From a phage: a DNA stretch of 64,000 bases. Both the position numbers and the translations under genes were made by a program. The stretch lies in sequence record PX104378.1; one strand, given 5' to 3'. Under the pieces are notes generated by a model. The model ran no database searches and had not been told where the DNA came from. It was given only the letters and a program-made list of their open reading frames with translations. Of this stretch, positions 1,597 to 39,030 are shown in pieces (position 1 is the first letter of the stretch; each line of letters opens with the position of its first letter).

Positions 1597-1625
1597 AGTA
1601 TAACGGGGATTTCTCCCCGCGTCAA
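1597..1625 (-). promoter_or_regulatory. PeSL-type early promoter (TTGACG-N17-TATACT), spacer forms hairpin
   Basis: Minus strand reads TTGACGCGGGGAGAAATCCCCGTTATACT; spacer GGGGAGAAATCCCC is palindromic. Confidence 0.6.
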
Positions 1626-2660
1626 CTAACTTTTTGCGCTATTTACTTCGGCTAAAAGTTCATCAGAAATACGCTTGACCGCCGCAAGTTCATCCGGTTC
1701 TAGGTTTTGTTCTTCCAGATATTCGTAAACCATTTGAATAGTGCTTTTAACCTCAATAACACCAGTTTCCTGTGATGCGCTACTCTCCAGCTTATGGACC
1801 ACTTTTAGCTTGTGTACAACGGCCTCTAACGCGCTTTCTAACTTAGTTAACCCATTATCAGCGACCGTTGCGATAAGACGCACACTAAGCCCCTTATAGC
1901 GTTCTACATCGATTTTATCATCTGACGGGTAAGTGATACGCACATGATAAGTTTTGTCATTCTGGATAAACTCTTTTTTGTGTGTATCGGTATCGAATAC
2001 CCAAAAACCACGCGGATCGTTTTCGTCACCAGCCGTTAGTGTGTATGGTGTACCGATATACGTTACGTTACCGCCATCGCTGATAGTATGAAAGTGACCA
2101 GAAAACACTTCACGATATTTCTTGAGGAAGTCCGCGCTATAACCTTCGGATTTTAGCCCTTTATAGAAATAGTAACCAGACAATTCCCAATGGCCTACAC
2201 AATATTCGCTGAATGAGTTTTGAATAAACTCTAAAATCTCTGATTTATTGTCATCACAAAACCACGGGAACAGATCAAATGATACACCATCAAAGGTGAC
2301 TGTTTCCGGTTTATCAATAACCTTAATGCAATCATACTGGCTTAACACTTCACGCGGTGCGTTAGGCTGGATCTTGTTTCGTTTAAACATATCATGATTC
2401 CCGACCGTGGTATAACAAGTAATACCAGCCTCTTCCAGTAGCGGGATAATTTTCGTTCTATTAAAACGCATAGTTGCATGTGTGATTGCTTTTCGGCAAT
2501 CAAACCAGTCCCCTGTCTGAATCCATGCCTTAATATTATGTTTTTTTGAATAATCGACTGCCTTTTTAATAGTATCAAGAATATACTCATGTATCCACGG
2601 ATCATCGTTGCCGATACCAGTATGCAGATCACCTAAAAGCAAAATTTTCATATTATACAT
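1626..2660 (-). CDS. 47: gp47 recombination endonuclease subunit (Mre11/SbcD-like phosphoesterase)
   Basis: Translation (KILLLGDLHTG..GDWFD..GNHD..GHFH..GDENDPRGFW) aligns along its length with remembered T4 gp47; AGGAGA RBS upstream of ATG. Confidence 0.9.
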   Translation of the reverse strand: MYNMKILLLGDLHTGIGNDDPWIHEYILDTIKKAVDYSKKHNIKAWIQTGDWFDCRKAITHATMRFNRTKIIPLLEEAGITCYTTVGNHDMFKRNKIQPNAPREVLSQYDCIKVIDKPETVTFDGVSFDLFPWFCDDNKSEILEFIQNSFSEYCVGHWELSGYYFYKGLKSEGYSADFLKKYREVFSGHFHTISDGGNVTYIGTPYTLTAGDENDPRGFWVFDTDTHKKEFIQNDKTYHVRITYPSDDKIDVERYKGLSVRLIATVADNGLTKLESALEAVVHKLKVVHKLESSASQETGVIEVKSTIQMVYEYLEEQNLEPDELAAVKRISDELLAEVNSAKS

Positions 2661-2666
2661 AATCTC

Positions 2667-3221
2667 CTAAAAATTTTTAACACCATATTCACCAAAATAA
2701 AGATCAACCGCTTTGTCATAAGCTCTAGCCGCATCTTCTTCGTTGACATAATACCCAAGAGATATTAGTTTATCATTATTTCGTATTCTTGCAACCCATT
2801 TCTTCGTATGTTTATGCCAGCTAACTCCTTTATACTTGCTTGCTTTATTCTTGTACTTTCCAACGTTACAAGCATTTTTCTTTGCGTCGGACTCTCTAAG
2901 ATTGCGCGGTGCGTTGTTTAAAGGATTTCGGTCTATATGATCTATAATTTCTGGTTGTGTTCCATGCTCAAGAAACCATACAACACGATGTACATATGGC
3001 TTTAAAACCCTCCCATTATCCATAACGATTGCAATTTGGAGATGATCCTGACTTTTAAAAGTTTTTACTTTATCTCCTGCCTTATAAAACTTTCCTTCGT
3101 AATTCTTTCCTCCGGCTCGGCTATTCTTTAAATGATAAAGAATACCCTCATCGTCATGTCTATATCTTTCTCTTATAATTCGTTGCGTTTCTTCATCCCA
3201 CAATTTGGAACGTCTACTCAT
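2667..3221 (-). CDS. HNH homing endonuclease with C-terminal AP2-type DNA-binding domain
   Basis: HNH motif HIDRNPLNNAPRNLRE and AP2-like segment YKGVSWHKHTKKWVARIR..LGYY..EEDAARAYDKA; GAGAGGAAGA RBS. Confidence 0.75.
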   Translation of the reverse strand: MSRRSKLWDEETQRIIRERYRHDDEGILYHLKNSRAGGKNYEGKFYKAGDKVKTFKSQDHLQIAIVMDNGRVLKPYVHRVVWFLEHGTQPEIIDHIDRNPLNNAPRNLRESDAKKNACNVGKYKNKASKYKGVSWHKHTKKWVARIRNNDKLISLGYYVNEEDAARAYDKAVDLYFGEYGVKNF

Positions 3222-3312
3222 AGTCTCTTCCTCTCTTCGTTTTCGATGCTCTCACTATATCACAGAAAAATAAAAAGGGAAACCCCTTTCAGAGTCTCCC
3301 TTATAAAAGCCA

Positions 3313-3600
3313 TTACAGCATACTTAATACCGTTTGCCGTGTACTAACCCACATAGCAGAAAGCAGTTCTGGCGTGTGTGGCTGTTTGTAGATATCACGC
3401 AATTTTCCGATAGCGTAGATATACGCATCACGGTTATCATCGATGATAGCTTGTTCAGCCCACCGCTTAAGGCGTGCAATCTCTCGCGAGTTCTTACGCA
3501 AGATCTTTTCCGCTTTCTTAGCGGCTTTCGCCTCTAGTTCTGCTTGTACTTTGTCTACTTCATTCACTACAATCTTGTCATGTTGTTCATCGTAAGTCAT
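3313..3600 (-). CDS. hypothetical protein (95 aa)
   Basis: Minus-strand ORF, tiles with neighbours. Confidence 0.45.
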   Translation of the reverse strand: MTYDEQHDKIVVNEVDKVQAELEAKAAKKAEKILRKNSREIARLKRWAEQAIIDDNRDAYIYAIGKLRDIYKQPHTPELLSAMWVSTRQTVLSML

Positions 3601-3601
3601 A

Positions 3602-3835
3602 TTATTTTCCTTCTGGGATATAGTCGATGATTAAAGAAAACTCATCTTCTGATACATTATAGCTATGTGAGATTGTACCCGTCAAGACCTCAAGATCCGG
3701 TGATTTGATATTGCACGGATCGATAATCACCGGAACGCCGCAATCTCTCAAAAATAATTTGGCGAAATACGGCACAAGGTCAGTTTCAAACTCTGCTTCT
3801 TCCAGCAAACGGGAAATGTTAATTTTCAATCTCAT
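3602..3835 (-). CDS. hypothetical protein (77 aa)
   Basis: Minus-strand ORF immediately downstream of gp55, small overlap. Confidence 0.45.
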
Positions 3836-4352
3836 AAAATTGGTCCAGGCTAGGCAATTCCTCGGTCAATACATCTTCAACCTTTGGCGCTTTCGGTTTA
3901 TTGACCGATTCCTCGTAGTTGTTGATCTTATCGTAAATGTCCTGTATGAATGCCTCATCAGCAATCTGGCACATATCAGCGTCGCGTTCGTCATATACAT
4001 GATGCACAAAATATTTGTATTTTGCGGCTGTCGCTGTTCTCTCTTTTTTAATGCGCTGTACAAAAGCATTAAAGCACGCTTGCGTGATGTAAGCATGAGG
4101 ATTTTTATACTTTGTCTCGTCAAAATTAATCAAACCCTTGACCGCCGCTTCGATTCCATCGTCGATCATTTCTTCGCGCCATGTTTGACTATAGCCAGAA
4201 AAGTTAAAACGCCGTGATAGATTTTTAGAGATTTGCATAATTGCTAGGCCGATTTGGTTGCTCATAGGCACTTGTCGACCTTCGGCTGCAATTCGTTGTT
4301 TCCAACGACAAATTTCTTCGTAAAGCTCTTTATTGTTTACATAATCAGACAC
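3819..4352 (-). CDS. 55: gp55 sigma factor for late transcription
   Basis: YVNNKEL...[54 protein letters not shown] matches T4 gp55 almost residue for residue; apparent GTG start after GAGGGTG RBS. Confidence 0.9.
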
Positions 4353-4392
4353 TTCGCACCCTCGCTATTATTTAGGAAATAACCCTTTCGGG

Positions 4393-6149: not shown

Positions 6150-6170
6150 AATATATTCCTCACTCAAGAA

Positions 6171-7082: not shown

Positions 7083-7089
7083 ATTACCA
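7054..7089. repeat. tandem direct repeat 2 x 17 bp (CAACAAACATATTACCA) with 1-nt spacer
   Basis: Read directly; 18-nt period keeps frame and duplicates the start-codon context of ORF 6585-7082 (NMFVDG / NMFVVG). Confidence 0.7.
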
Positions 7090-9461: not shown

Positions 9462-9603
9462 ATTCAATTACCCCGAACTCGTTTACAATCTGCGCTTTAT
9501 AGTAACCACCGCGAGATGCCAATAGATAAGCTGGGCTTAGGTATTCGTATTCACGGATTTCTACTTGTGCGTTTTCAGTTTCCCAAATCAGTAAAGTCCA
9601 CAT
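9451..9603 (-). CDS. small hypothetical protein (50 aa)
   Basis: ATG at 9603 immediately after PeSL leader/RBS GGAGAATCAAAT; the longer track ORF would contain the promoter. Confidence 0.3.
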   Translation of the reverse strand: MWTLLIWETENAQVEIREYEYLSPAYLLASRGGYYKAQIVNEFGVIEYEF

Positions 9604-9645
9604 ATTTGATTCTCCTGTAAAGTTGTATCTCGTCTTGATGAATAT

Positions 9646-9674
9646 AGTATAGGGGATCTCGCGATCCCCGTCAA
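9646..9674 (-). promoter_or_regulatory. PeSL-type early promoter (TTGACG-N17-TATACT) with hairpin spacer
   Basis: Minus strand TTGACGGGGATCGCGAGATCCCCTATACT followed by leader and GGAGAATCAAAT RBS. Confidence 0.6.
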
Positions 9675-10223: not shown

Positions 10224-10763
10224 TCAAAGGTCGCGATATAGTACATTATGAAAATGAGAACTTGCATTACCAATATTGTAGATAATAAATTCTTCATCCG
10301 GCGCTTGCGCTACAAATTGAGTATGAGCAACCGCCACAACCTTAAAAATACGATCCGTGATCTTGTGTTTAATTTCTGCCCCTACTTCCATAGGAACATA
10401 TTCATTTGTTTCTGTTTCAGTCGCAAAACAGCCATCTTCTTCATAAGCACGAACAAATCGGTCGCACTCAGTACGCTTAACAAATTCAAGAGTATACAAT
10501 TCTCGTGAATTGTCGGTATAGACCAATACAGAATTATTATGATAGCGAATCACATACAGGTTATTATCATCGTCAATTACGCAAAAGCTACGGATTCCTT
10601 CGCCTATACTCCAGCAGATATTAACCACGGTTCCTCTAATAAAAAAACTTTCCTTTAAATTAAAACTAGTCAATGTGCTAGCGTGCATTTTAACAACAAC
10701 ACCATCGCCAATTTCCAGTTTACGAAGTTTAACTTCTTTGCTCAGTACACAAAACATCATCAT
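10224..10763 (-). CDS. hypothetical protein (179 aa)
   Basis: ORF directly downstream of PeSL promoter 10793-10820 and GAGAGGACAAC RBS. Confidence 0.5.
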   Translation of the reverse strand: MMMFCVLSKEVKLRKLEIGDGVVVKMHASTLTSFNLKESFFIRGTVVNICWSIGEGIRSFCVIDDDNNLYVIRYHNNSVLVYTDNSRELYTLEFVKRTECDRFVRAYEEDGCFATETETNEYVPMEVGAEIKHKITDRIFKVVAVAHTQFVAQAPDEEFIIYNIGNASSHFHNVLYRDL

Positions 10764-10792
10764 GTTGTCCTCTCGTTGTTTTCGATGTGAGC

Positions 10793-10820
10793 ATTATACA
10801 TTAGCCAATCATGTTGTCAA
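10793..10820 (-). promoter_or_regulatory. PeSL-type early promoter (TTGACA-N16-TATAAT)
   Basis: Consensus hexamers on minus strand; conserved leader GCTCACATCGAAAACAACGAGAGGA before ATG 10763. Confidence 0.7.
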
Positions 10821-10835
10821 CACCCCAAAACGAAA

Positions 10836-10858
10836 AAGCCGACCCTTTCGGATCGGCT
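10836..10858 (-). terminator. intrinsic terminator after nrdD (part of PeSL)
   Basis: Hairpin AGCCGATCCGAAAGGGTCGGCT followed by T-run on minus strand. Confidence 0.6.
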
Positions 10859-12770: not shown

Positions 12771-13265
12771 TTATTTTACCAGTTCTGCTAATTCTTTTTC
12801 CGCCGCTTCCAGTTCAGCTTTCAGTTGTTTAATCTCTTGTCGCTTCTTATTAGCGGCTTCCTGCTTACTATTTCGGATAACCTGATCTAGATATGAATCC
12901 CACTCATGAATATTTTTGATAATGTAACCGTCAACGTTCAGAACTTTAATATTAAGAACTTCTTCCAGCTTACTTAAAGAACGTTGTGTTTCGGGGAAGA
13001 AATAGTCATATTCACCTCGGTCAAACCAGTAGCGTATGCCAGCTTTATCTAAACGACGATGCAATTCATCAAAATCTCTACCATCTTCGACGATGAGTTT
13101 GTCTACATCGCCATTACAGTTAACAGAGACTTTGAATCTAATATTATCAACCCCACCAAAAACATCAATAAGGATAGTTCCTATCGTGTTATCCGCGCTT
13201 CCAGTATCCATAAAAGATTCTAGTTTTTCTTGATTAGTAACGTACCAAACATCTTGTTTCCACAT
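12771..13265 (-). CDS. hypothetical protein (164 aa) with coiled-coil C-terminus
   Basis: ORF downstream of PeSL promoter 13296-13323; C-terminal KQLKAELEAAEKELAELVK. Confidence 0.5.
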   Translation of the reverse strand: MWKQDVWYVTNQEKLESFMDTGSADNTIGTILIDVFGGVDNIRFKVSVNCNGDVDKLIVEDGRDFDELHRRLDKAGIRYWFDRGEYDYFFPETQRSLSKLEEVLNIKVLNVDGYIIKNIHEWDSYLDQVIRNSKQEAANKKRQEIKQLKAELEAAEKELAELVK

Positions 13266-13295
13266 AATATAATCCTCTCGTTGTTAAGTGGGAGT

Positions 13296-13323
13296 ATTAT
13301 AGCATACTCCCTTCGCATGTCAA
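13296..13323 (-). promoter_or_regulatory. PeSL-type early promoter (TTGACA-N16-TATAAT), hairpin spanning spacer/-10
   Basis: Minus strand TTGACATGCGAAGGGAGTATGCTATAATACTCCC. Confidence 0.65.
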
Positions 13324-14498
13324 GCACTAACTTTTTTCTTTACTGCTTTCACCTTCTGGCGAATTGCTCGAATCTCTTCGATCTCTTTTTCAGTCTCTTT
13401 AACAATTTCTTTGCGATTCTGAATATCTGTATCGAGATTATCATCAAGTTTAGGCAGCATGTCAATCAAGAACTTTTTAAAGTCTTTCAGGTTTCTGATA
13501 ACAGCACCTTCACCCATTACCGCCACCCCTACACCATCCGGCAGATCGCCAAACAGTTTAACCAGTTCAGACAGATGATCATGATCTTCTAGTGCTTCTT
13601 CCGGTTCAGATGGCAGTTCAACAAAGTTATAACGTTCATCATTGCTGATCAGGTGATACCAGCAAAGCCCGAATGATTTCGGTGTATATTCTACACCATC
13701 AATTTCAACCGAGTCAACACTTCCATAATCATCTACTTTAGTTACCTTAAATCCTTGTCCCAGCTTTTGAACAATTTCAACAACATGACTTGATACAGTT
13801 TCAGCGGTAAACCAATATGGCAAATTATGCTGATTTGGCTTGTAGCGTTCACCTACTTTAAATCTCTGACCAGCCGCTTGCATAGCATGAAATTGTTGTT
13901 TCGTGATTTCCGCGAAGTATTCAAATTCGCCACCATCAAACACACAAGCCCATTGTTCACAAAAACGATCTGCCTTAACAGTTTCACCTTTCGCGGTGAT
14001 CATGGTAGCCGACCCGTGAAATTCTTCTTCAACTAAAAAGCCATATTCGACAAAATCAACAAGTTTCATGGCTTCTTTGTGCTCTGGATCATGCTCTCCC
14101 CAGAATCGCTTAAATTCTTGCAAACCTTCCGGGGTAAACGAATAGCACTTACCTTTTTCAAAGTAAGTAGGCATTGCATCGTCTTTCTTGTTCATCGCTT
14201 CGTATGCCTCTTTTGAGATGCGTTTAAAGTATTTGCGCTCATTGTGCATAATCATAGTAGCCCAATAATCCACAATATCATTAGCGGAATAAACTACATC
14301 TCCAGCTTCAATAGTAATAACATGACCGTGGTCATCTTTTTCTAATACTTTAAAGCCCTTTTCTACGATTCCAGCAACCCGAATATGACCACGGCGCGAA
14401 GCATCGGTCAGAATAATTGAATAGCGAGAAAAGTCTAGAAACTCATCTTTACCGCCTTCACGGAATGCATAGTAATGCCCTTCAAAGAATTTAGCCAT
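13320..14498 (-). CDS. hypothetical protein, paralog family A (about three repeat domains, 392 aa)
   Basis: Repeated GFKVLEKDDHG.. / GFKVTKVDDYGSVDSVEIDGVEYT and ERKYFKRISKEAYEAM segments. Confidence 0.6.
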   Translation of the reverse strand: MAKFFEGHYYAFREGGKDEFLDFSRYSIILTDASRRGHIRVAGIVEKGFKVLEKDDHGHVITIEAGDVVYSANDIVDYWATMIMHNERKYFKRISKEAYEAMNKKDDAMPTYFEKGKCYSFTPEGLQEFKRFWGEHDPEHKEAMKLVDFVEYGFLVEEEFHGSATMITAKGETVKADRFCEQWACVFDGGEFEYFAEITKQQFHAMQAAGQRFKVGERYKPNQHNLPYWFTAETVSSHVVEIVQKLGQGFKVTKVDDYGSVDSVEIDGVEYTPKSFGLCWYHLISNDERYNFVELPSEPEEALEDHDHLSELVKLFGDLPDGVGVAVMGEGAVIRNLKDFKKFLIDMLPKLDDNLDTDIQNRKEIVKETEKEIEEIRAIRQKVKAVKKKVSA

Positions 14499-14529
14499 AA
14501 TATAATCCTCTCGTTGTTTAGATGGGAGT

Positions 14530-14558
14530 ATCTTACTACTCCCGTTTCATCATGTCAA
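14530..14558 (-). promoter_or_regulatory. PeSL-type early promoter (TTGACA-N17-TAAGAT)
   Basis: Same GGGAGTA..TACTCCC hairpin module as at 13296 and 15440. Confidence 0.6.
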
Positions 14559-15135: not shown

Positions 15136-15408
15136 TCATTTCACTAATTGAACAGCACGGAACAGAATGCGCTCACACGGAAGCAGCATAAATTCCCAAC
15201 GCGGATCAAAGTCTTTAGCGGTGTATGTTTTCCCATCAACCGAGATTTCACTTACATAACCAACAGGTGACACTTTAAGAACAGTAAACCCATTCTTGAT
15301 GACTTCGTAGGTATCTTTCACCCCTTCGTATTCATCATCTAAGAAGTCTTTATGTGCTTGCTCAGATTTAAAAACATAGGCCACACCGGATTTAAACATC
15401 TTACGCAT
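15136..15408 (-). CDS. hypothetical protein, paralog family A (single domain)
   Basis: FKSEQAHKDF..NGFTVLKVSPVGYVSEISVDGKTYTAKDF; start at ATG 15408 after GGAGAATCAACA leader. Confidence 0.5.
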   Translation of the reverse strand: MRKMFKSGVAYVFKSEQAHKDFLDDEYEGVKDTYEVIKNGFTVLKVSPVGYVSEISVDGKTYTAKDFDPRWEFMLLPCERILFRAVQLVK

Positions 15409-15439
15409 TGTTGATTCTCCTTCTTGATTAGATGGGAGT

Positions 15440-15468
15440 ATTTTACTACTCCCATTTCTTATTGTCAA
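15440..15468 (-). promoter_or_regulatory. PeSL-type early promoter (TTGACA-N17-TAAAAT)
   Basis: Minus strand TTGACAATAAGAAATGGGAGTAGTAAAATACTCCC then GGAGAATCAACA RBS. Confidence 0.6.
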
Positions 15469-18321: not shown

Positions 18322-18630
18322 TTATTTCACGTTAACGCCGTCATCAATCCAGCCGACGCTATTTTGTTTAACAGTTTTACCATAGGATGCATACTTAATC
18401 AAGCATGGTTTAACATCATTATCAAATCTTCCTAAACGTACTCCCAAATCAGGAATATCCATGTATGCGGCTTTATATCCCCATGTGCCGTATTCAGAAT
18501 CAATCTCAACCGGACGGCCTTTAAAAGCATACACTACACCGTGACGGTCAACGATAACATAGCGATAGCCAGCCGGAAGATACACAGTTTCGCCGTAAAC
18601 TTTAACTGGAGTAGCAGAAGAGATAAACAT
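18322..18630 (-). CDS. hypothetical protein (102 aa)
   Basis: ATG at 18630 followed upstream by GAGGATTATATT RBS and PeSL promoter 18665-18693. Confidence 0.5.
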   Translation of the reverse strand: MFISSATPVKVYGETVYLPAGYRYVIVDRHGVVYAFKGRPVEIDSEYGTWGYKAAYMDIPDLGVRLGRFDNDVKPCLIKYASYGKTVKQNSVGWIDDGVNVK

Positions 18631-18664
18631 AATATAATCCTCACATCGTTCATTTGATGCGGTC

Positions 18665-18693
18665 ATTATATGATAACCGCATTTTCATGTCAA
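18665..18693 (-). promoter_or_regulatory. PeSL-type early promoter (TTGACA-N17-TATAAT)
   Basis: Minus strand TTGACATGAAAATGCGGTTATCATATAAT with GCGGTTATCA..TGACCGC hairpin. Confidence 0.65.
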
Positions 18694-19018: not shown

Positions 19019-19297
19019 TTACATGTCTTGCAGTGCATAAAAGCATTTTTCTTCGTAGTCATAGAAAATGTCAAAGTATGCTTTTTCTACATACTCGCCA
19101 TTGATCCAAGCGGCAGTAACAATCAGAGTGGTCCAGTTAGATCCGCTCTCAACCGTAAAGGTTTTAATACCCAGCTTCGCTGCTAAGTCGAACGCAAACC
19201 GGACGCAACCACGGCAGGAAGTGATATTGGAAGTTTTGATTTTGATGCCACCGCGAGTTTTAGAAATTTCTACTTTAGCGAAAGACAGGTTGCTCAT
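19019..19297 (-). CDS. hypothetical protein (92 aa)
   Basis: ATG after PeSL leader GGAGAATCAAA; promoter 19340-19368 upstream. Confidence 0.5.
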   Translation of the reverse strand: MSNLSFAKVEISKTRGGIKIKTSNITSCRGCVRFAFDLAAKLGIKTFTVESGSNWTTLIVTAAWINGEYVEKAYFDIFYDYEEKCFYALQDM

Positions 19298-19339
19298 TTT
19301 GATTCTCCTTAAGAAAGTGTGTTTCGTTTTGATGTGTGT

Positions 19340-19368
19340 AGTATAGGGGATACGTGATCCCCTGTCAA
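19340..19368 (-). promoter_or_regulatory. PeSL-type early promoter (TTGACA-N17-TATACT) with hairpin spacer
   Basis: Spacer GGGGATCACGTATCCCC palindromic; conserved leader ACATCAAAACGAAACACAC. Confidence 0.65.
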
Positions 19369-21310: not shown

Positions 21311-21601
21311 TCAAATGGTAGTTTTGCGAAGATGGTCATTACATGCTTTTAATGCATCAGTCGCGGTGTCATAGCGAGTATTATCATAGCACCAGTAACC
21401 ATCTGTCAACTGATAAATCAATCCATCCCTTTTAGCTTCGATGAAAGATAACTCTTTGAAAGTTTCTACTTTCTTTGCTGATACTCCACGGTCACGGCGC
21501 TTATAGAGTTTAGCTAAAATGCGTTCAGCTTGTTCCTCTTTATCACCAGACAGATCCCAAATAATGTTGCGGATATGTTTGATTAATTGTTCAGTGGTCA
21601 T
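21311..21601 (-). CDS. hypothetical protein (96 aa)
   Basis: ATG after PeSL leader GGAGAATCAAAG; promoter 21631-21658. Confidence 0.5.
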   Translation of the reverse strand: MTTEQLIKHIRNIIWDLSGDKEEQAERILAKLYKRRDRGVSAKKVETFKELSFIEAKRDGLIYQLTDGYWCYDNTRYDTATDALKACNDHLRKTTI

Positions 21602-21630
21602 CTTTGATTCTCCTTAGTTGGTATGTGTGC

Positions 21631-21658
21631 ATTATAGCACTATGATTTTCATTGTCAA
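21631..21658 (-). promoter_or_regulatory. PeSL-type early promoter (TTGACA-N16-TATAAT)
   Basis: Consensus hexamers; leader and GGAGAATCAAAG RBS before ATG 21601. Confidence 0.7.
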
Positions 21659-21675
21659 CAACTAAAAACAAAAAA

Positions 21676-21695
21676 GGCTATCCAGAAGGATAGCC
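21676..21695 (-). terminator. intrinsic terminator after the gp38-like gene
   Basis: Perfect 8-bp stem GGCTATCC/GGATAGCC with 4-nt loop followed by T-rich run on minus strand. Confidence 0.7.
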
Positions 21696-21702
21696 CATAA
21701 AA

Positions 21703-22542: not shown

Positions 22543-22764
22543 TTAGATGACCTCTGCTTCACCATTCAGGAAGAAAGACCATGTTTTGTTAGGACAGCGA
22601 AGCGCCCATGATTCAGCAGTTTTAACACCAGCTTCGAACAATTGACGGCTGGTTACTTTAGCCATACCATCTTCGATGGCAACGTTTTCAATAATCATCG
22701 GGTACTTAGCGCCACGCATGAAACCGAAGCCAGCGGAAGATTTGATAATTTTAACAGTTGCCAT
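22543..22764 (-). CDS. hypothetical protein, paralog family B
   Basis: MATVKIIKSSAGFGFMRGAKYPMIIEN..EAGV parallels MKIEIID..VKLPIIVEG..AGVP; PeSL promoter 22806-22834 upstream. Confidence 0.5.
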   Translation of the reverse strand: MATVKIIKSSAGFGFMRGAKYPMIIENVAIEDGMAKVTSRQLFEAGVKTAESWALRCPNKTWSFFLNGEAEVI

Positions 22765-22805
22765 TTTTGATTCTCCTAGAAAGTGTATCTCGTTTCGATG
22801 TGTGT

Positions 22806-22834
22806 ATTATGCAATAACACCGGATCACTGTCAA
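22806..22834 (-). promoter_or_regulatory. PeSL-type early promoter (TTGACA-N17-CATAAT)
   Basis: Conserved leader ACACATCGAAACGAGATACAC and GGAGAATCAAAA RBS. Confidence 0.6.
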
Positions 22835-23819: not shown

Positions 23820-24018
23820 TCTTCACGGTCTCCATAATTGTTTTGTAAGCCAGTTTAAGATGATCACCGAAAAACTTTGCAGTGTTACCCTTCGGATCGC
23901 GAAGCATGGTTTCTACGATCTCATCGGCAGTAACAATTTCTCCTTTCTTTGCTGCATGTCCTACCATATACTTCAAAGTTTCTTCGGAAGCAAGTGCTGC
24001 GGCTACTGGATTAATCAT
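23809..24018 (-). CDS. hypothetical protein (69 aa)
   Basis: ATG after PeSL leader GGAGAATCAAA; promoter 24048-24076. Confidence 0.5.
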   Translation of the reverse strand: MINPVAAALASEETLKYMVGHAAKKGEIVTADEIVETMLRDPKGNTAKFFGDHLKLAYKTIMETVKNAK

Positions 24019-24047
24019 TTTGATTCTCCTTTGTTGTCGATGTGTGC

Positions 24048-24076
24048 ATTATGCTATACCCTATTCCGGTTGTCAA
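24048..24076 (-). promoter_or_regulatory. PeSL-type early promoter (TTGACA-N17-CATAAT)
   Basis: Terminator hairpin immediately upstream, leader and RBS downstream. Confidence 0.6.
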
Positions 24077-24093
24077 CACCTAAAAACGAAAAA

Positions 24094-24113
24094 AGCCACC
24101 CTTTCGGATGGCT
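24094..24113 (-). terminator. intrinsic terminator after the 715-aa gene
   Basis: Hairpin AGCCATCCGAAAGGGTGGCT followed by T6 on minus strand. Confidence 0.65.
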
Positions 24114-24125
24114 TTTGATTATATT

Positions 24126-26273: not shown

Positions 26274-26293
26274 GTATCCCCCTGTGACTGACA

Positions 26294-26692
26294 TTAAGCC
26301 AGTCGAGTGAGTTTATAAATTGTTTTAAAGCATAGAACTTTTATATCGTCTAAAACGCTCTGTAACGAGCTATCAACATCATTATAAATCTCACTAGCCA
26401 TTTGCGTTAACTCTTGCAAATAGGCAATTTCGCTAATCTCCTTGCGGACGACCAACGTTGGCTGATAACGACCAGTGATCCCAATATTGGTTTCAGTGAA
26501 ATTATCAACCAATTCTTGCATTTCAAGATAGAACTCTTCGAGAGCCTTATGTTTTGCATAAGATCCCGGACCAGTTACCCCAAAATGCGCAGAATGCATA
26601 TAAGTAACACTCATCAGACATTCACCGATAAAGCGGTCAACTTTATTAGCTTTCCCCTCTTCGGACGTCTTTCGAAAATCACTGAATTTCAT
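26294..26692 (-). CDS. hypothetical protein (132 aa)
   Basis: Start at ATG 26692 after GGAGAATCGAGAAC RBS. Confidence 0.4.
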   Translation of the reverse strand: MKFSDFRKTSEEGKANKVDRFIGECLMSVTYMHSAHFGVTGPGSYAKHKALEEFYLEMQELVDNFTETNIGITGRYQPTLVVRKEISEIAYLQELTQMASEIYNDVDSSLQSVLDDIKVLCFKTIYKLTRLA

Positions 26693-34771: not shown

Positions 34772-35024
34772 AGAATGAAATTTTCACAGACACAATTTTA
34801 CCATAAGTGAAGAATGAATATACATTATCGAGATATTCAACGTCACCTACAATCACATCAAACTGCGGATCAGCAACCGCCGCAACATATTCTACCAGTT
34901 CATCAAGAGAATGCAACTTAATTTCATCAATTCGGCTGTATTTGGTTGCATCTTTGATTTTAAAACCACGTTGTTTCAGCTTATCAATTAGAATTTCACG
35001 CGGAGTTTCAAACAGTTTGCTCAT
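34704..35024 (-). CDS. hypothetical protein (106 aa)
   Basis: ATG after GAGGATTATATT RBS. Confidence 0.5.
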   Translation of the reverse strand: MSKLFETPREILIDKLKQRGFKIKDATKYSRIDEIKLHSLDELVEYVAAVADPQFDVIVGDVEYLDNVYSFFTYGKIVSVKISFCENVEVLASEPEKPTDNGPTAA

Positions 35025-35045
35025 AATATAATCCTCACATTAAAT

Positions 35046-35246
35046 CTAAAATTTGTTAACGACGAATTGCATAATTAGACTAATCACAAACATTGCAAAC
35101 CAAGTATAAATGCAACAGATAAAAGCTACATACAATTCAATCTGGTCAGAGAATACACCGGGTAAAAGCATTAGCAAAATAACAACAGTAAAGACGCTAG
35201 CGATACCCGCAACAAAACCAATATCATTTTTACTAATCGTCATCAA
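35046..35246 (-). CDS. small hydrophobic protein (66 aa)
   Basis: TM segments. Confidence 0.4.
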   Translation of the reverse strand: MMTISKNDIGFVAGIASVFTVVILLMLLPGVFSDQIELYVAFICCIYTWFAMFVISLIMQFVVNKF

Positions 35247-35452
35247 GTCACCGTTTTGTAAAGAAACACAATAAAATCCAAGACAAGAAAGACAGTGTAA
35301 ATGATCATCGTCAAGACAGTAAACACTGTCAAATTTTCATCGTTAGTTAATTCATAGTCGCCCATCCATACAATCACAAGATATAGCATTGAAAGAATGG
35401 AAGCACCTACGAAGTTAAAAAACATATTCTTGAGCGTCATATTAACAACCAT
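35243..35452 (-). CDS. small hydrophobic protein (69 aa)
   Basis: TM segments. Confidence 0.4.
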   Translation of the reverse strand: MVVNMTLKNMFFNFVGASILSMLYLVIVWMGDYELTNDENLTVFTVLTMIIYTVFLVLDFIVFLYKTVT

Positions 35453-35624
35453 CGCGGCTTAAGTCAACAGCAATTGCATACAGCATAATGAATATGCTAG
35501 CAGATCCGAGAATCAATGCACCCTCACATTTTGAAACTCGCTCATCAAAATGTAACATTATCCATCCGAGGATGTTAAAGGCGCAGACCGCGCCTATGTT
35601 CTCTAACCAATTAATCTTTTTCAT
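35442..35624 (-). CDS. small hydrophobic protein (60 aa)
   Basis: TM segments. Confidence 0.4.
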   Translation of the reverse strand: MKKINWLENIGAVCAFNILGWIMLHFDERVSKCEGALILGSASIFIMLYAIAVDLSRDGC

Positions 35625-35632
35625 AATATACC

Positions 35633-35959
35633 TTAGAAAGAAACAGTTTTCAAGAAATCCAGATTTTTAGTACCGAAAACAGAAAAGTAGTGTTTTCCTT
35701 TTTCGGTTTTAGAGAAAGCGATTGTCTTCTCTACATGGTGACGGAAGCCAGACAGACGATCACCCAGGTCAAGGCGGCAAGCGTAAGTAGTGCCGTTTTC
35801 GAAAGTAACCTCGATTTGAGTTTTGTCATATTCGCTTTCATAGGCTTTTGCTGCCGCGTCCTGTGCTTTACGCTCGAAGTCTTCGAAGTGGAATACTTCG
35901 TTTGCGTTAGCGAATACAGAAGATTCAGAGAAGATAACTTTAACAGATACTGGTTTCAT
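35633..35959 (-). CDS. hypothetical protein (108 aa)
   Basis: ATG after PeSL leader GGAGTATCAAA; promoter 36002-36030. Confidence 0.55.
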   Translation of the reverse strand: MKPVSVKVIFSESSVFANANEVFHFEDFERKAQDAAAKAYESEYDKTQIEVTFENGTTYACRLDLGDRLSGFRHHVEKTIAFSKTEKGKHYFSVFGTKNLDFLKTVSF

Positions 35960-36001
35960 TTTGATACTCCTTAGTAGTTCGTGTTTCGTTTCGATGGGTG
36001 T

Positions 36002-36030
36002 ATTATGCTATACACCCTCTCGCGTGTCAA
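36002..36030 (-). promoter_or_regulatory. PeSL-type early promoter (TTGACA-N17-CATAAT)
   Basis: Leader ACACCCATCGAAACGAAACAC identical to copies at 36980 and 38966. Confidence 0.65.
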
Positions 36031-36039
36031 CAACTTTTT

Positions 36040-36228
36040 TTAGTCTTTTTTCATAATTTCTAGAGCAGTTTCTACAGCACCTTTCCAACCTTCCCACATA
36101 ATGGACATAGTAAGGAAGTTAAAGCACCCGCAGGAATCAACCTTTTTAGAGATAAACCATTCTACAAACGCTTCGCTCATACCATGCTCTTTAGCGGATT
36201 CGCGTAATTGTTCAATTTGGTCTTCCAT
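36040..36228 (-). CDS. hypothetical protein (62 aa)
   Basis: ATG after GAGGTGATACT RBS. Confidence 0.45.
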   Translation of the reverse strand: MEDQIEQLRESAKEHGMSEAFVEWFISKKVDSCGCFNFLTMSIMWEGWKGAVETALEIMKKD

Positions 36229-36250
36229 AGTATCACCTCAACACTTAACG

Positions 36251-36445
36251 TTATTCAAACTCAAACGGTCTATTCAACCTATTGTAAAAGTACATATAAC
36301 AAGCAAAATTATGCTTTGGCTGTACCGTATCAGATAGACACGCTTTTACAGCCTCGCGGTCCGATGGGTCTACACCCTCAGCTTTAAGTAATGCTAAAAT
36401 CTGGTTATAGCGTACTCTTAGTTGTACTAATGGTTTATCCCCCAT
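36251..36445 (-). CDS. hypothetical protein (64 aa)
   Basis: Minus-strand ORF, tiles with neighbours. Confidence 0.45.
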   Translation of the reverse strand: MGDKPLVQLRVRYNQILALLKAEGVDPSDREAVKACLSDTVQPKHNFACYMYFYNRLNRPFEFE

Positions 36446-36454
36446 ATTACCCCC

Positions 36455-36682
36455 TTATAGTTGATCAGCAATGTATGCGGTGCATTTGCGGAGTTTAGCC
36501 ATAGCACCACCTTTCATGTCGCTTGCGCCTACAATGTTCATGATCTCTAAGCGATCAGCCGGATTCAGTCTAGTAGCCCAGATCTGGTTAGCCAGTTCCA
36601 TTTTACCCATCTGCGGTTCCATCTCAAACATTTCACGCTCAAAGTCGATAATTTCTTTTGCTGCGTCTTTAAAGTTAATCAT
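36455..36682 (-). CDS. hypothetical protein (75 aa)
   Basis: ATG after PeSL leader; promoter 36712-36740. Confidence 0.5.
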   Translation of the reverse strand: MINFKDAAKEIIDFEREMFEMEPQMGKMELANQIWATRLNPADRLEIMNIVGASDMKGGAMAKLRKCTAYIADQL

Positions 36683-36711
36683 TTTGATTCTCCTGTTCAG
36701 TTGATGGTTGT

Positions 36712-36740
36712 ATTGTAGGGGAGTTATCCTCCCCTGTCAA
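36712..36740 (-). promoter_or_regulatory. PeSL-type early promoter (TTGACA-N17-TACAAT) with hairpin spacer
   Basis: Spacer GGGGAGGATAACTCCCC palindromic. Confidence 0.6.
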
Positions 36741-36748
36741 CACTTTTA

Positions 36749-36934
36749 TCAGAAATATGCAATATAGTTTGCCAGTCCTACAGAGTCATCATTCGGCATT
36801 GCTTTTACTGCCAGTTCAAACCCTGCTTCAACTTTCTGTTTAGCGGATTCTTCGTTATAACCCCAGATTACCAGAATAGCTACTACGTTTTCTTTGCTTA
36901 CTGCTTTCAGTGCTTTAGTGATGCGACGTGCCAT
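36749..36934 (-). CDS. hypothetical protein (61 aa)
   Basis: ATG after PeSL leader GGAGAATCAAATT; promoter 36980-37008. Confidence 0.5.
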   Translation of the reverse strand: MARRITKALKAVSKENVVAILVIWGYNEESAKQKVEAGFELAVKAMPNDDSVGLANYIAYF

Positions 36935-36979
36935 AATTTGATTCTCCGTTTAAGAAAGTGTGTTTCGTTTCGATGGGTG

Positions 36980-37008
36980 TATTATGCTATAGGCCGGATC
37001 TGGTGTCA
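36980..37008 (-). promoter_or_regulatory. PeSL-type early promoter (TTGACA-N17-CATAAT)
   Basis: Leader ACACCCATCGAAACGAAACACAC and GGAGAATCAAATT RBS. Confidence 0.65.
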
Positions 37009-37042
37009 ACAACTTTTTTAAAAAAATTTTAGGCAATAAAAA

Positions 37043-37062
37043 AGCCACTCCGAAGAGTGGCT
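37043..37062 (-). terminator. intrinsic terminator
   Basis: Perfect 8-bp stem AGCCACTC/GAGTGGCT, loop CGAA (TTCG on minus), followed by T6 on minus strand. Confidence 0.7.
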
Positions 37063-37210
37063 TATAGGGAAGGTAGCGAATCTTCCTTGTCTCCAACCTG
37101 CTAGCGGCCTAGCAAGTGAATGCTTTAGCGTACCGGATAGCCCACATACGCTGTAATAAATGCGGCTAGGTGACGTCCAAATCATTCTAACCGCGCTGTC
37201 TTTAGTTCAC
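37063..37210 (-). ncRNA. candidate small non-coding RNA or structured leader (~150 nt), speculative
   Basis: ORF-free stretch bounded by a late-promoter match (37214-37221) and intrinsic terminator (37043-37062); contains internal inverted repeats; not a canonical tRNA. Confidence 0.25.
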
Positions 37211-37212
37211 TA

Positions 37213-37431
37213 TTATTTATATCGCTTTCTCTCGCGACGTTTTTGATCTTCTTCCTTGATAGAGTTAAATGCATCAAAAAGACACATGACACTAATAATA
37301 AACATAACCGTATTTTCTACGATATCCCACGGCTTCGCATCAGTACAGATCCCCCAAACGGTAAGAAATGCAAATAAGGCAGAAGAGATCACAAGAATGA
37401 TACTTGCTAAGATATAAAAAGTCATTTTCAT
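37213..37431 (-). CDS. small hydrophobic protein (72 aa)
   Basis: TM segment plus basic tail. Confidence 0.4.
   Translation of the reverse strand: MKMTFYILASIILVISSALFAFLTVWGICTDAKPWDIVENTVMFIISVMCLFDAFNSIKEEDQKRRERKRYK
37214..37221 (-). promoter_or_regulatory. T4-type late promoter TATAAATA (minus strand)
   Basis: Exact TATAAATA on minus strand overlapping the stop codon of ORF 37213-37431. Confidence 0.45.
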
Positions 37432-37622
37432 GGTTTTACCTCAATTCTTCGATATTCATCACACATCCACGCAGTAAGCAAGAATCCCAACACATAAGCA
37501 ACAAAATACGTTAATGCTTCTTCTGGTTCGGTGCTATGCGCCATCATCAGACCAGCGAGAAAGGTCTTAACAATTACATTTAAAATAATTAGCCACGCAA
37601 ATAATTTCATCGTTTGCCCCAT
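37428..37622 (-). CDS. small hydrophobic protein (64 aa)
   Basis: TM segments. Confidence 0.4.
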   Translation of the reverse strand: MGQTMKLFAWLIILNVIVKTFLAGLMMAHSTEPEEALTYFVAYVLGFLLTAWMCDEYRRIEVKP

Positions 37623-37846
37623 TTCGGTCGAGTCTTTTCAAACTTATACATTCCGTAACAATCTCGAATCATCCACGTAACAAAAGCACCAGTCAACGCA
37701 GACAATACACAGAAGAAGTAAAACGGTCCGGTTGCATTATCAACATGAGCAAGCCAGGTAAAGAAAACACATGCTAAGAATGTAAAGAACATCATAAAGC
37801 ACAAGAAAGCGAAATATTTTATACTACTCATAGCGCCACCATACAA
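37607..37846 (-). CDS. small hydrophobic protein (79 aa)
   Basis: TM segments. Confidence 0.4.
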   Translation of the reverse strand: MYGGAMSSIKYFAFLCFMMFFTFLACVFFTWLAHVDNATGPFYFFCVLSALTGAFVTWMIRDCYGMYKFEKTRPKWGKR

Positions 37847-37924
37847 AAGATCATAAGAAAACCCAACGCAATAAGAATTGCATCAAATTTAGTGAACTCA
37901 GGTCCACCTATCAACATCATTCGT

Positions 37925-38167
37925 TCATAGCGTACAAAGCCATTTAAAAGCACCACATAAAGCGAGCAGAATACTAGGTATAAACGAGATCAAAACAAGT
38001 TTGCAAAAATCATCTAAGGAAACACCGGAATAGCTACCTACTGTAACAACACCGATCATCAGACACAGAAAGAAAACAAATGCAATCATAAACAAAGTAT
38101 TGCTAAACAGTTTAATGATCATTAGACACCCCACGACGATCAATTTCAAAAACTTTTTTATCATCAA
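37925..38167 (-). CDS. small hydrophobic protein (start uncertain)
   Basis: TM segments; overlaps upstream ORF. Confidence 0.35.
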   Translation of the reverse strand: MMIKKFLKLIVVGCLMIIKLFSNTLFMIAFVFFLCLMIGVVTVGSYSGVSLDDFCKLVLISFIPSILLALCGAFKWLCTL

Positions 38168-38315
38168 CGAAGCATGTCACAACTGCCTCGTTGACTTCCG
38201 CAAATTGTTGTGTTACCCACTTAAGGTCAGAGCGAAACAATGTTCTATTAATAACAAATGTTTTACCGCTCTTATCCTTACCCATAAATTTTGCTTTAAC
38301 CATATCAAATTCCAT
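38112..38315 (-). CDS. hypothetical protein (67 aa)
   Basis: ATG after AAGGTGATAAT RBS. Confidence 0.4.
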   Translation of the reverse strand: MEFDMVKAKFMGKDKSGKTFVINRTLFRSDLKWVTQQFAEVNEAVVTCFVDDKKVFEIDRRGVSNDH

Positions 38316-38324
38316 ATTATCACC

Positions 38325-38483
38325 TTATTTGCTAATCGCTAAACCCAATCCGAAGAGAGCACCCGATGCTACAGTATACCCGAAAGTTTCAAAGGCAGTA
38401 AAGATATCTAAGCCACCAGCTAACAGAGTTGCAGTAAACAGAGTACCAGCTACGAACATAAAAGTTTTACCGATAAATTTCAT
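38325..38483 (-). CDS. small hydrophobic protein (52 aa)
   Basis: Not in ORF track; MKFIGKTFMFVAGTLFTATLLAGGLDIFTAFETFGYTVASGALFGLGLAISK; ATG directly after PeSL leader GGAGAATCAAA; promoter 38516-38544. Confidence 0.4.
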   Translation of the reverse strand: MKFIGKTFMFVAGTLFTATLLAGGLDIFTAFETFGYTVASGALFGLGLAISK

Positions 38484-38515
38484 TTTGATTCTCCTTTCGT
38501 TTGTTTGTGGGGGGT

Positions 38516-38544
38516 ATCTTACTACCCCCGTTTCATGTTGTCAA
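38516..38544 (-). promoter_or_regulatory. PeSL-type early promoter (TTGACA-N17-TAAGAT) with hairpin
   Basis: GGGGGTAGTAAGATACCCCCC hairpin; GGAGAATCAAA RBS before ATG 38483. Confidence 0.6.
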
Positions 38545-38550
38545 CTATTT

Positions 38551-38928
38551 TTAAGAATATTTTACTTCGTCTACAATGTCTTTCATGACATTGATTTCCA
38601 TTCCGGTCAGAACACGTTGGAACATGTGCTGCACATACGCTTTCAGGTATTCATTTGATGGCTTGCTATCGAAAGTCTTTTTAGTGTAGTAGTCATCACC
38701 GAAAGCTACTGTAATTACATTTTCGTCGTCGTTCCAAGCGATATAAGCAAATTTGCCGTTATCCCAGAAGCGAGCACTAATTGCTACTTTTGTTGAATCG
38801 AATCCTACTTCGCTGTGAGATTCAAGAACTACTTGCGTGCCAGTTTCTTTATGAATGTAGTAGCGGGATACTAAGTCAAAGTTACGGGTGTAGTGACATT
38901 CGAATTTATCTTTAAACATCATCATCAT
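38551..38928 (-). CDS. hypothetical protein (125 aa)
   Basis: Start at ATG 38928 after PeSL leader; promoter 38966-38994. Confidence 0.5.
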   Translation of the reverse strand: MMMMFKDKFECHYTRNFDLVSRYYIHKETGTQVVLESHSEVGFDSTKVAISARFWDNGKFAYIAWNDDENVITVAFGDDYYTKKTFDSKPSNEYLKAYVQHMFQRVLTGMEINVMKDIVDEVKYS

Positions 38929-38965
38929 TTTGATTCTCCTAAGTGTGTTTCGTTTCGATATGTGC

Positions 38966-38994
38966 ATTATGCTATAGTCGTTTATGGTTGTCAA
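38966..38994 (-). promoter_or_regulatory. PeSL-type early promoter (TTGACA-N17-CATAAT)
   Basis: Leader ACATATCGAAACGAAACACAC and GGAGAATCAAA RBS before ATG 38928. Confidence 0.65.
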
Positions 38995-39011
38995 CACCTA
39001 AAAACAAAAAA

Positions 39012-39030
39012 CCCCGAAAAATTTTCGGGG
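39012..39030 (-). terminator. intrinsic terminator after gene 57B
   Basis: Hairpin CCCCGAAAATTTTTCGGGG followed by T-run on minus strand. Confidence 0.65.

Follow-up and report, generated by a model that had tools for sequence, protein, structure and literature searches.

A phage DNA stretch of 64,000 nucleotides (nt) from record PX104378.1, hereafter the window, carries 19 copies of one composite intergenic cassette, 18 on the minus strand between 1569 and 39031 and one on the plus strand at 52810-52910, as found by searching the whole window with a profile hidden Markov model (nhmmer) built from the 19 intergenic copies. Judging from their sequence, the cassettes are very probably promoter-early stem-loops (PeSLs), composite early regulatory cassettes of RB49-like phages (genus Krischvirus). 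Since PeSLs were discovered and named in Phi1 and RB49, members of the same phage group (Arbiol, Comeau, Kutateladze, Adamia and Krisch, Genome Biol Evol 2:140; Arbiol et al., 2010, PMC2839356), the feature was already known and the present finding is a rediscovery, correctly made. What the analysis may add is a reading of the PeSL as a three-layer expression module and more than a promoter with a terminator, to which a probability of about 0.35 is assigned: the Shine-Dalgarno (SD) sequence GGAGAAUCAAA would be a dedicated RegB/S1 endonuclease site that co-evolved with regB, combined with an older start/leader module, AUCGAAACGAAAC. What remains novel would be the interpretation of the SD as a RegB site, together with a start/leader motif common to three genera.

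Census and Anatomy of the Cassettes

The first-pass annotation had reported more than 15 cassettes between 1597 and 39030, a range that agrees with the outermost elements, and a further plus-strand copy before a methyltransferase cassette, which was found at 52851-52878, beyond that range. The profile expectation values (E) lie below 1e-7 for 17 copies, reaching 1e-12 for the best, and are 3e-4 for 29822 and 2e-3 for 1625, the next match being at 0.7 (copies are numbered in the list below and also named by the position of their -35 hexamer, given there in brackets). A strict regular expression recovers 14 minus-strand cassettes and one plus-strand cassette that are plainly alike beyond the hexamers, and the top ranks of an independent consensus scanner are the same sites, with strong T-run terminators immediately 5' of five minus-strand copies. 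All 19 copies are intergenic and correctly oriented and lie 19-40 nt 5' of a start codon with an SD; the genes behind them are mostly annotated as "hypothetical protein" in Phi1, RB49 and GEC-3S. The notion that AT-rich DNA has produced these sigma70-like matches by chance deserves next to no credence. A loose scan at 9 of 12 positions does yield 76 and 93 matches, where shuffles yield about 57, but a scan for both hexamers with at most two mismatches in total finds 49 sites on the minus (coding) strand and 8 on the plus strand, compared with 10.8 +/- 3.3 in 100 dinucleotide shuffles. Together with the uniform placement of the copies, the profile E-values and hexamers that are nearly invariant among orthologues, these statistics refute an origin by chance.

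Each cassette consists, in this order, of an A/T tract, GTTGACA, a 16-17 nt spacer, the -10 hexamer, a C-rich discriminator, the start, the leader and the SD. In the information profile TTGAC, A-11 and T-7 are invariant (19/19) and G-36 is conserved, while the information content of the spacer is about 0 bits. Counted from the -35 hexamer, an A-run occupies -5 to -9 and a T-run -11 to -15, and G is found at -1 in 15/19 copies. Conservation continues downstream from C-5 to A+10, including A+5 to A+7, with C-5, C-3, T+2 and C+3 each present in 15, C-1, A+5 and A+10 each in 17, and A+1 in 18 of the 19 copies. The conserved start, C-1 A+1 T C n A A A, is followed by a short A/C-rich, unstructured leader. 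Because the seeds were picked by hexamers and intergenic position only, the downstream conservation is an independent, non-circular observation.

A stem-loop is found in 17/19 copies, 22834 and 29822 being without a convincing stem. A true intrinsic terminator lies upstream of six (38994, 37009, 24076, 21658, 10820 and +52851), in keeping with the optional terminator module of the first-pass annotation; these T-run hairpins start at 39031, 37063, 24116, 21696, 10858 and +52810 and form a sequence family, GCCnnTCC-GAAA-GGnnGGC-TTTTTCGTTTT, and the other hairpins have no T-run. The spacer, described earlier as often a perfect palindrome, is filled by one in four copies (36740, 19368, 9674 and 1625), whereas seven others have a hairpin with the -10 hexamer in its loop (-10 to -16 kcal/mol; 38544, 36030, 30667, 18693, 15468, 14558 and 13323) and the remaining six the upstream terminator. 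Strong terminator-like hairpins without a neighboring cassette promoter are located at 31901-31877, 3302-3275, 22524-22509 and 17789-17765; the first belongs to the cassette-terminator sequence family and the last is called on both strands. Lengths of encoded proteins are given below in amino acids (aa).

Cassette 1 (38994), 38926..39031, minus strand: terminator 39031-39011 with T-run; -35 TTGACA 38994-38989; -10 CATAAT 38971-38966; predicted +1 at ~38959; leader ATCGAAACGAAACACACTTA; SD GGAGAATCAAA 38939-38929; ATG 38928 (125 aa, Phi1 ORF125 homologue); E=3e-12
Cassette 2 (38544), 38481..38544, minus strand: -10 TAAGAT 38521-38516 inside the loop of a GGGGGTAG/ACCCCC hairpin (-13.6 kcal/mol); SD GGAGAATCAAA; ATG 38483 (52 aa); E=9e-9
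Cassette 3 (37009), 36932..37063, minus strand: terminator 37063-37042; -10 CATAAT 36986-36981; 40-nt leader including CGAAACGAAACAC; SD GGAGAATCAAA; ATG 36934 (61 aa); E=2e-12
Cassette 4 (36740), 36680..36740, minus strand: palindromic spacer GGGGAGGATAACTCCCC; TACAAT; SD GGAGAATCAAA; ATG 36682 (75 aa)
Cassette 5 (36030), 35957..36030, minus strand: hairpin GGGTGTATAG/CATAAT/ACACCC around the -10; leader including CGAAACGAAACAC; SD GGAGTATCAAA; ATG 35959 (108 aa); E=3e-12
Cassette 6 (30667), 30605..30667, minus strand: -10 TAATAT within a GGGGGTAG/ACCCCC hairpin; SD GGAGTATTAAA; ATG 30607 (112 aa), next gene downstream regB; E=1e-11
Cassette 7 (29822), 29757..29822, minus strand, weak member: TTGACT, 17-nt spacer, TATTAT; SD GGAGAAATTA; ATG 29759 (vs.1, 196 aa); site annotated as promoter in GEC-3S; E=3e-4
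Cassette 8 (24076), 24016..24116, minus strand: terminator 24116-24091; CATAAT; SD GGAGAATCAAA; ATG 24018 (69 aa); strongest profile match, E=9e-13
Cassette 9 (22834), 22762..22834, minus strand: CATAAT; leader ATCGAAACGAGATACAC; SD GGAGAATCAAA; ATG 22764 (73 aa); without strong hairpin
Cassette 10 (21658), 21599..21696, minus strand: terminator 21696-21675 (after gene 38); 16-nt spacer; TATAAT; SD GGAGAATCAAA; ATG 21601 (96 aa)
Cassette 11 (19368), 19295..19368, minus strand: palindromic spacer GGGGATCACGTATCCCC; TATACT; leader ATCAAAACGAAACAC; SD GGAGAATCAAA; ATG 19297 (92 aa)
Cassette 12 (18693), 18628..18693, minus strand: TTGACA, 17-nt spacer, TATAAT (consensus); hairpin GCGGTTATCA/TATAAT/GACCGC; SD GAGGATTATATT; ATG 18630 (102 aa)
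Cassette 13 (15468), 15406..15468, minus strand: TAAAAT within a GGGAGTAG/ACTCCC hairpin; SD GGAGAATCAAC; ATG 15408 (90 aa)
Cassette 14 (14558), 14496..14558, minus strand: TAAGAT within a GGGAGTAG/ACTCCC hairpin; SD GAGGATTATATT; ATG 14498 (frd.2, 392 aa)
Cassette 15 (13323), 13263..13323, minus strand: TTGACA, 16-nt spacer, TATAAT (consensus); GGGAGTATGC/ACTCCC hairpin; SD GAGGATTATATT; ATG 13265 (164 aa), divergent-allele boundary exactly at this ATG
Cassette 16 (10820), 10761..10858, minus strand: terminator 10858-10837 (after nrdD); TTGACA, 16-nt spacer, TATAAT; SD GAGAGGA; ATG 10763 (179 aa)
Cassette 17 (9674), 9601..9674, minus strand: TTGACG; palindromic spacer GGGATCGCGAGATCCCC; TATACT; SD GGAGAATCAAA; ATG 9603 (50 aa)
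Cassette 18 (1625), 1569..1625, minus strand, weak member: TTGACG; palindromic spacer CGGGGAGAAATCCCCG; TATACT; leader not conserved; ATG 1571 (83 aa); E=2e-3
Cassette 19 (+52851), 52810..52910, plus strand: terminator hairpin 52810-52837; TTGACA 52851-52856; TATAAT 52873-52878; leader ATCTAAACAAC; SD GGAGGATAAAT; ATG 52908; E=4e-10

Relation to Known Regulatory Cassettes

The window belongs to Krischvirus (RB49/Phi1/GEC-3S group): megablast of 30000-40000 and 9000-33000 against GenBank phages gave 95-98% identity to ~60 Krischvirus genomes, including Phi1, RB49, JSE, GEC-3S, Brandy and G2494. About 100 PeSL motifs are known, 52 in Phi1 and 51 in RB49, in which an AT-rich region is combined with a sigma70 consensus, a stable and often polyG/polyC stem-loop in any of five positions (5' of the -35, in the spacer, or at or beside a hexamer) and a 3' SD and start; they cluster mostly before ORFans of hyperplastic regions and around nrdD, g43 and hoc, PeSL-PeSL recombination produces mini-circles, and lacZ fusions revealed promoter and terminator activity of Phi1 PeSL193/192, 206/205 and 211/210, loci that lie outside the window (Arbiol et al., 2010). 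The cassettes occupy orthologous loci in the same genus and display all of the sequence-level features, namely hexamers 16-18 nt apart (16-17 nt here), an A/T tract, the stem-loop position and an intergenic placement from stop codon to SD, which bears out the PeSL identification of the first-pass annotation. The modules are the same (a stop codon, the A/T tract, the sigma70 -35/-10 pair, GGGG...CCCC stem-loops at several places, then the SD and start), as are the density, with 19 in 64 kilobases (kb) here and 52 in the 164-kb Phi1 genome, and the association with small hypothetical genes and nrdD; nothing essential differs. Promoters and terminators are annotated at most orthologous positions in the GenBank record of GEC-3S. 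The text of Arbiol et al. (2010) contains neither "leader" nor "RegB" and does not discuss a conserved initial transcribed sequence.

The early consensus of RB49 has G at -33, T or C at -12 and C at -3 to -1 (Nolan, 2006, PMC1524935) and, as stated in that paper, agrees with 5'-end mapping, which is taken here from the literature, as are promoter and terminator activity and the mini-circles. The cassettes are similar to these early promoters (Desplats, 2002, as cited; Nolan, 2006) in G at -33, T/C at -12, a C-rich -3 to -1 and the upstream A tract; those descriptions end at about +1, whereas conservation here extends to ~+10 to +14. The early promoter class of T4 (Tequatrovirus) is different, with GTTTAC and an extended consensus in place of GTTGACA with G at -33. 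The cassettes would function like T4 early promoters, yet by sequence belong to the sigma70-consensus RB49 type.

Cassette 19 precedes a three-gene block on the plus strand (52908-54321) encoding 85 aa, 109 aa and a 279-aa methyltransferase of the N6-adenine type (PF05175/Eco57I, NPPF motif). The block sits between baseplate genes 8 and 9 in the late region, with its own terminator and early-type promoter; every Krischvirus record retrieved has it, but in RB43 genes 8 and 9 adjoin each other and the block is missing from this position. In this respect it resembles a moron, a type of element reportedly described by Hendrix in 2000. Morons and integron gene cassettes share with PeSLs an accessory gene with its own promoter and terminator that is transcriptionally insulated. 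By contrast, the regulatory sequence of PeSLs is itself the proposed recombination substrate, and no integrase or attC-type site takes part.

Conservation Among Relatives and Across Genera

Compared with five relatives, the substitution rate is 0.002 in each of the two hexamers, 0.010 in the SD module, 0.035 at +1 to +15, 0.036 in the discriminator, 0.050 in the spacer and 0.065 at third codon positions, so that the SD module is strongly and the start/leader moderately constrained. BLAST with the -10/leader/SD consensus recovers multiple copies per genome in Krischvirus, Pseudotevenvirus (RB43, CfP1 and Cronobacter phages) and Slopekvirus (Klebsiella Miro-like phages and phT4A). In leE, phT4A and RB43 the -35 context is a different one, CTTGCA, often inside a terminator-like hairpin, so that these promoters too are PeSL-like, and they retain TAtAtT-ACACA-CATCGAAACGAAACA. 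At RB43 57743, 95371, 96827 and 10866, leE 19150 and phT4A 19392, CTTGC(A/G) lies within a GC-rich terminator-like hairpin and continues into TTTTG-TTATATT-ACACA-CATCGAAACGAAACAGACAAAAGGAA, a compact terminator/promoter overlap with a Krischvirus-type start/leader.

Similarity of leader and SD without any function, due to recent common ancestry and gene conversion among mobile cassette copies (concerted evolution), is an unlikely explanation. Some copies are indeed very close: 38994 and 24076 are near-identical from the terminator tail to +8, 10820 and +52851 both have GCTCACATC(G/T)AAA(A)CAAC, 14558 and 13323 carry the same leader and SD, and the published mini-circles show that cassettes recombine (Arbiol et al., 2010). 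However, the -35/-10 spacer, which would be inside any conversion tract, is not conserved, while the positions flanking it are conserved position by position; in addition, the start/leader motif survives across three genera, within surrounding DNA that either is 65-85% identical or cannot be aligned, and the SD module evolves six times more slowly than synonymous sites.

Start and Leader

The actual sequence around the start is ACAyCCATCGAAACGAAACAC, the +1 to +15 stretch reading ATCGAAACGAAAC. A conserved leader had been claimed, and in general this is right, whereas the literal ACA(C/T)CGAAACGAAACAC is absent from the window; the exact 13-mer CGAAACGAAACAC occurs three times, and five times with up to two mismatches, a count reached by 3/100 shuffles. 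Since leader length varies from 19 to 40 nt, the start motif is anchored to the -10 hexamer and the transcription start site rather than to the ATG.

The leaders contain 49% A, 23% C and 10% G. From +1 to ATG+30 the RNA folds more weakly than shuffles in 17/19 copies (mean z +0.88, t-test p=2e-5), with minimum free energies of only -0.6 to -7.9 kcal/mol, and Rfam gave no match at the gathering threshold across the window. The weak folding and the negative Rfam result indicate selection for an open 5' region and not for a fold. A structured cis-regulatory RNA (riboswitch, attenuator or small-RNA-like element), for which the repeated occurrence of the sequence is the only argument, is therefore very improbable and, given such short leaders of this composition, effectively refuted. 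The shared post-transcriptional signal of the first-pass annotation finds partial support in the SD module, which fits the RegB/S1 consensus, and not in a conserved RNA structure; the part of the leader proximal to the transcription start may instead be a feature of the promoter, i.e., of the initial transcribed region. None of the known consensuses for Hfq (ARN)n, IHF, a DnaA box or a nicotinamide adenine dinucleotide (NAD)-capping start site fits the leader. The exact 14-mer CATCGAAACGAAAC has at least 120 single-copy matches in IMG/VR, apparently by chance and uninformative, and CGAAACGAAAC was not found in a phage context in paper texts.

That the conservation 3' of the -10 hexamer is purely a promoter feature, with no RNA signal, has nearly even odds. 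In such a scenario these very strong early promoters would be adjusted in the lifetime of their open complexes and in their escape by C-5/C-3/C-1, the CAT start and an initial transcribed region rich in A, and the SD would be no more than a strong one. This is consistent with the anchoring of the motif, with its presence behind different -35 contexts in RB43, leE and phT4A, and with the moderate constraint at +1 to +15 (0.035, compared with 0.065 at third positions). It is also supported by the early promoters A1-A3 of T7, likewise sigma70 promoters close to consensus in a lytic coliphage: the start of A1 is CC/ATCGA... (CC/ATCGAGAGGGACAC, more fully CC/ATCGAGAGG) and A3 starts CAC/ATGAAACGACAG (also given as AC/ATGAAACGA... 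and AC/ATGAAACGAC), both resembling the cassette start, and A2 and A3 share TTGACAACATGAA (13 nt and 12 nt) with cassettes 38544 and 10820. When 38544-38516, 10820-10793 and 14558-14530 were compared, AGTAAGATAC was common to the A2 -10 region and the cassette sites. The T7 promoters differ in belonging to an unrelated family, in being three tandem rather than dispersed copies, and in having no stem-loops or SD module. The shared flanks could have converged on an optimum for the RNA polymerase of E. coli or stem from an old exchange, and the likeness favors a promoter-level role of the first ~10 transcribed bases. By contrast, a promoter feature leaves unexplained why, outside regB, GGAG with an A-rich tail hardly occurs except at promoter-proximal genes, why few such SDs exist in RB43, a phage without regB, and why structure is selected against across the whole translation initiation region. 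A promoter role is compatible with, and not exclusive of, the RegB explanation of the SD module.

The Shine-Dalgarno Module and RegB

The RegB/S1 target is an 11-nt single-stranded sequence, GGAGRAYARAA, usually the SD of an early gene (Durand, 2006, PMC1702504), in which GGA(G/U) is followed by an A-rich tail of 7 nt. Cleavage, G/A and stimulated by S1, is known only at T4 sites and at a few in RB49, among them the regB SD, a GGAU site reported to be cleaved in vivo (PMC1702504; PMC3014915). Two types of ribosome-binding site had been assigned to the cassettes, of which GGAGAATCAAA proved essentially cassette-specific, being nearly limited to the first gene after a promoter, whereas GAGGATTATATT is not and precedes many internal genes without a promoter. 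GGAGAATCAAA agrees with the RegB/S1 consensus at 10/11 positions. Among 96 mapped gene starts, at most one mismatch to the consensus is found in 9/18 promoter-proximal and 1/78 internal genes (Fisher p=3e-7, a generous value because the cassette copies are paralogues and the test overstates their independence); counted over all cassette SDs, the figure is 10/19. The sole internal gene is regB itself, whose SD has no mismatch:

30265..30277, minus strand: SD of regB (not a cassette), GGAGAATAAAA followed by ATG; perfect RegB/S1 consensus, the only internal gene with such a site

Sites with an intact GGA and at most one mismatch number 13 in the window, 11 of which are cassette SDs or the regB SD, and the RegB pattern as a whole occurs 17 times compared with 9.0 +/- 2.8 in shuffles. 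The regB SD GGAGAATAAAA is a T4-optimal site, while RB49, Phi1, GEC-3S and JSE have GGATAATAAAA; a single T-to-G change turns the atypical GGAU autoregulatory site into the T4-optimal one. In RB43 no regB is annotated and the best match of a whole-genome tblastn has E=2.6; its leader-bearing promoters use AAAGGAA...ATCATG SDs, and RegB-like SDs number 3 in its 180 kb compared with 11 in the 64-kb window. As RB43 keeps the leader without regB, the start/leader module does not depend on RegB, and it is the GGAG-A-rich SD that accompanies regB. As in T4, the putative site is an 11-nt SD of early genes with GGAG and an A-rich tail, and regB itself carries one. The sequence of the cassette SD suggests a built-in RegB cut site; on this reading a G/A cut would be expected in GGAGAAUCAAA, GGAGAAUAAAA and GGAUAAUAAAA, and not in GAGGAUUAUAUU.

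Proposed Mechanism and Its Weaknesses

In the most likely explanation, that of PeSLs, the canonical intrinsic terminator of about one third of the copies would block read-through from upstream, and the other copies would have a GC-rich hairpin in the spacer or around the -10 in its place. The A/T tract and the near-consensus sigma70 promoter (GTTGACA, 16-17 nt, TAtAAT-like) would serve the unmodified host RNA polymerase immediately after infection. The C-rich discriminator and the A+1 U C n A A A C... start are probably mainly part of the promoter, acting in start-site choice and fast escape, and the A/C-rich, G-poor leader would be selected to stay unstructured. The SD module GGAGAAUCAAA, present in about half of the copies, would double as a target of the RegB/S1 endonuclease, and accumulation of RegB would thus shut off the first cistron of every immediate-early transcript. 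As repeated units of ~60-100 base pairs (bp), the cassettes may in addition act as patches of homology for recombination, their published shuffling role.

Several observations weigh against this explanation. No T-run follows the hairpin in 13/19 copies, so that a terminator function of these is not evident from the sequence. At position 8, for which T4 sites strongly favor A, the module GGAGAAUCAAA carries C, and the Krischvirus RegB is only ~41-45% identical to T4-type RegB; both leave cleavage of GGAGAAUCAAA uncertain. The paralogy of the copies weakens the statistical association of RegB sites with cassettes, and any GGAG SD whose spacer is rich in A serves translation initiation well in its own right. 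Finally, 5/77 unique breakpoints in the comparison with five relatives fall in cassettes, where 5.2% are expected (p=0.37), and most insertions and deletions (indels) are homing-endonuclease genes.

Cassettes and Gene Shuffling

The cassettes had also been cast as mediators of modular shuffling. Five clean allele boundaries lie at cassettes, namely 9674 (at its -35, relative to JSE), 10820 (JSE and JK32), 13323 (at its ATG), 14558 (Phi1) and 24076, whereas breakpoints in general are not enriched, also not with wider cassette margins (7 and 10 of 77; p=0.23 and 0.09). By coordinate, clean switches map to 9685 (JSE), 10775-10812 (JSE and JK32) and 14591 (Phi1). In the open reading frame (ORF) at 12771-13265 (minus strand, 164 aa), the N-terminal two-thirds (12924-13259) are ~40% divergent from Phi1, RB49, GEC-3S and JSE and identical to JK32, the switch lying exactly at the start codon beside cassette 13323. 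Preferential recombination at cassettes rests on the published mini-circles and Phi1/RB49 comparisons.

Among the larger indels of the 1-44 kb region relative to Phi1, GEC-3S, RB49 and JSE, no cassette-to-cassette events were found; they consist of homing-endonuclease genes, some of them inserted in JSE and GEC-3S, and of one deletion within a 722-aa ORF. A free-standing HNH_3+AP2 gene of the homing-endonuclease type at 2667-3221 (minus strand) is found in RB49 and not in Phi1, GEC-3S or JSE, and a free-standing NUMOD3 ORF of this type at 42842-43537 (minus strand) is absent from 4/4 relatives with sequence across the site; with the JSE and GEC-3S insertions, these make up most gene-sized indels of the region. 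The 722-aa ORF (24126-26294, minus strand), with only a weak sub-threshold Ig_3 match, is located just upstream of cassette 24076 and is present in Brandy and JK32 (712 aa). Phi1, RB49, GEC-3S and JSE have a remnant of ~70-130 bp in its place, and since the remnant ends lie inside the ORF, an internal deletion in these phages is suggested.

Gene Layout of the Window

GC skew and ORFs place minus-strand genes up to ~43.6 kb and plus-strand late genes beyond. According to synteny with Phi1, the order over 1-41 kb is gene 46, 47, 55, nrdH/G/D, frd.2, 49, dam, 38, rI, tk, vs, regB, dmd and 57A/1/3, with many small hypothetical ORFs interspersed. At the junction of the two gene blocks (43526-43578), overlapping divergent sigma70-like sites, TTGATA..TATAAT (minus strand) and TTGATA..TATTAT (plus strand), do not match the cassette profile.

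Implications

The biological addition is small, PeSLs, RB49 early promoters and RegB all having been described already, and consists of three leads. Most differences between relatives in the 44-kb early region are explained by homing endonucleases and by mosaic patches within genes, not by PeSL-to-PeSL exchange; the ribosome-binding site of the cassette may couple immediate-early expression to RegB-mediated shut-off; and an initial transcribed sequence is conserved over three genera of T4-like phages. These leads could guide reporter assays and RNA-end mapping, as well as the engineering of phage expression cassettes that are both strong and insulated. If the proposed module is real, a gene captured behind a cassette would gain immediate-early expression together with a programmed shut-off, the SD module would be kept in Krischvirus, with AAAGGAA standing in its place in RB43, a phage without regB, and AUCGAAACGAAAC, conserved in Krischvirus, Pseudotevenvirus and Slopekvirus, would have a specific role in promoter escape or 5'-end recognition.

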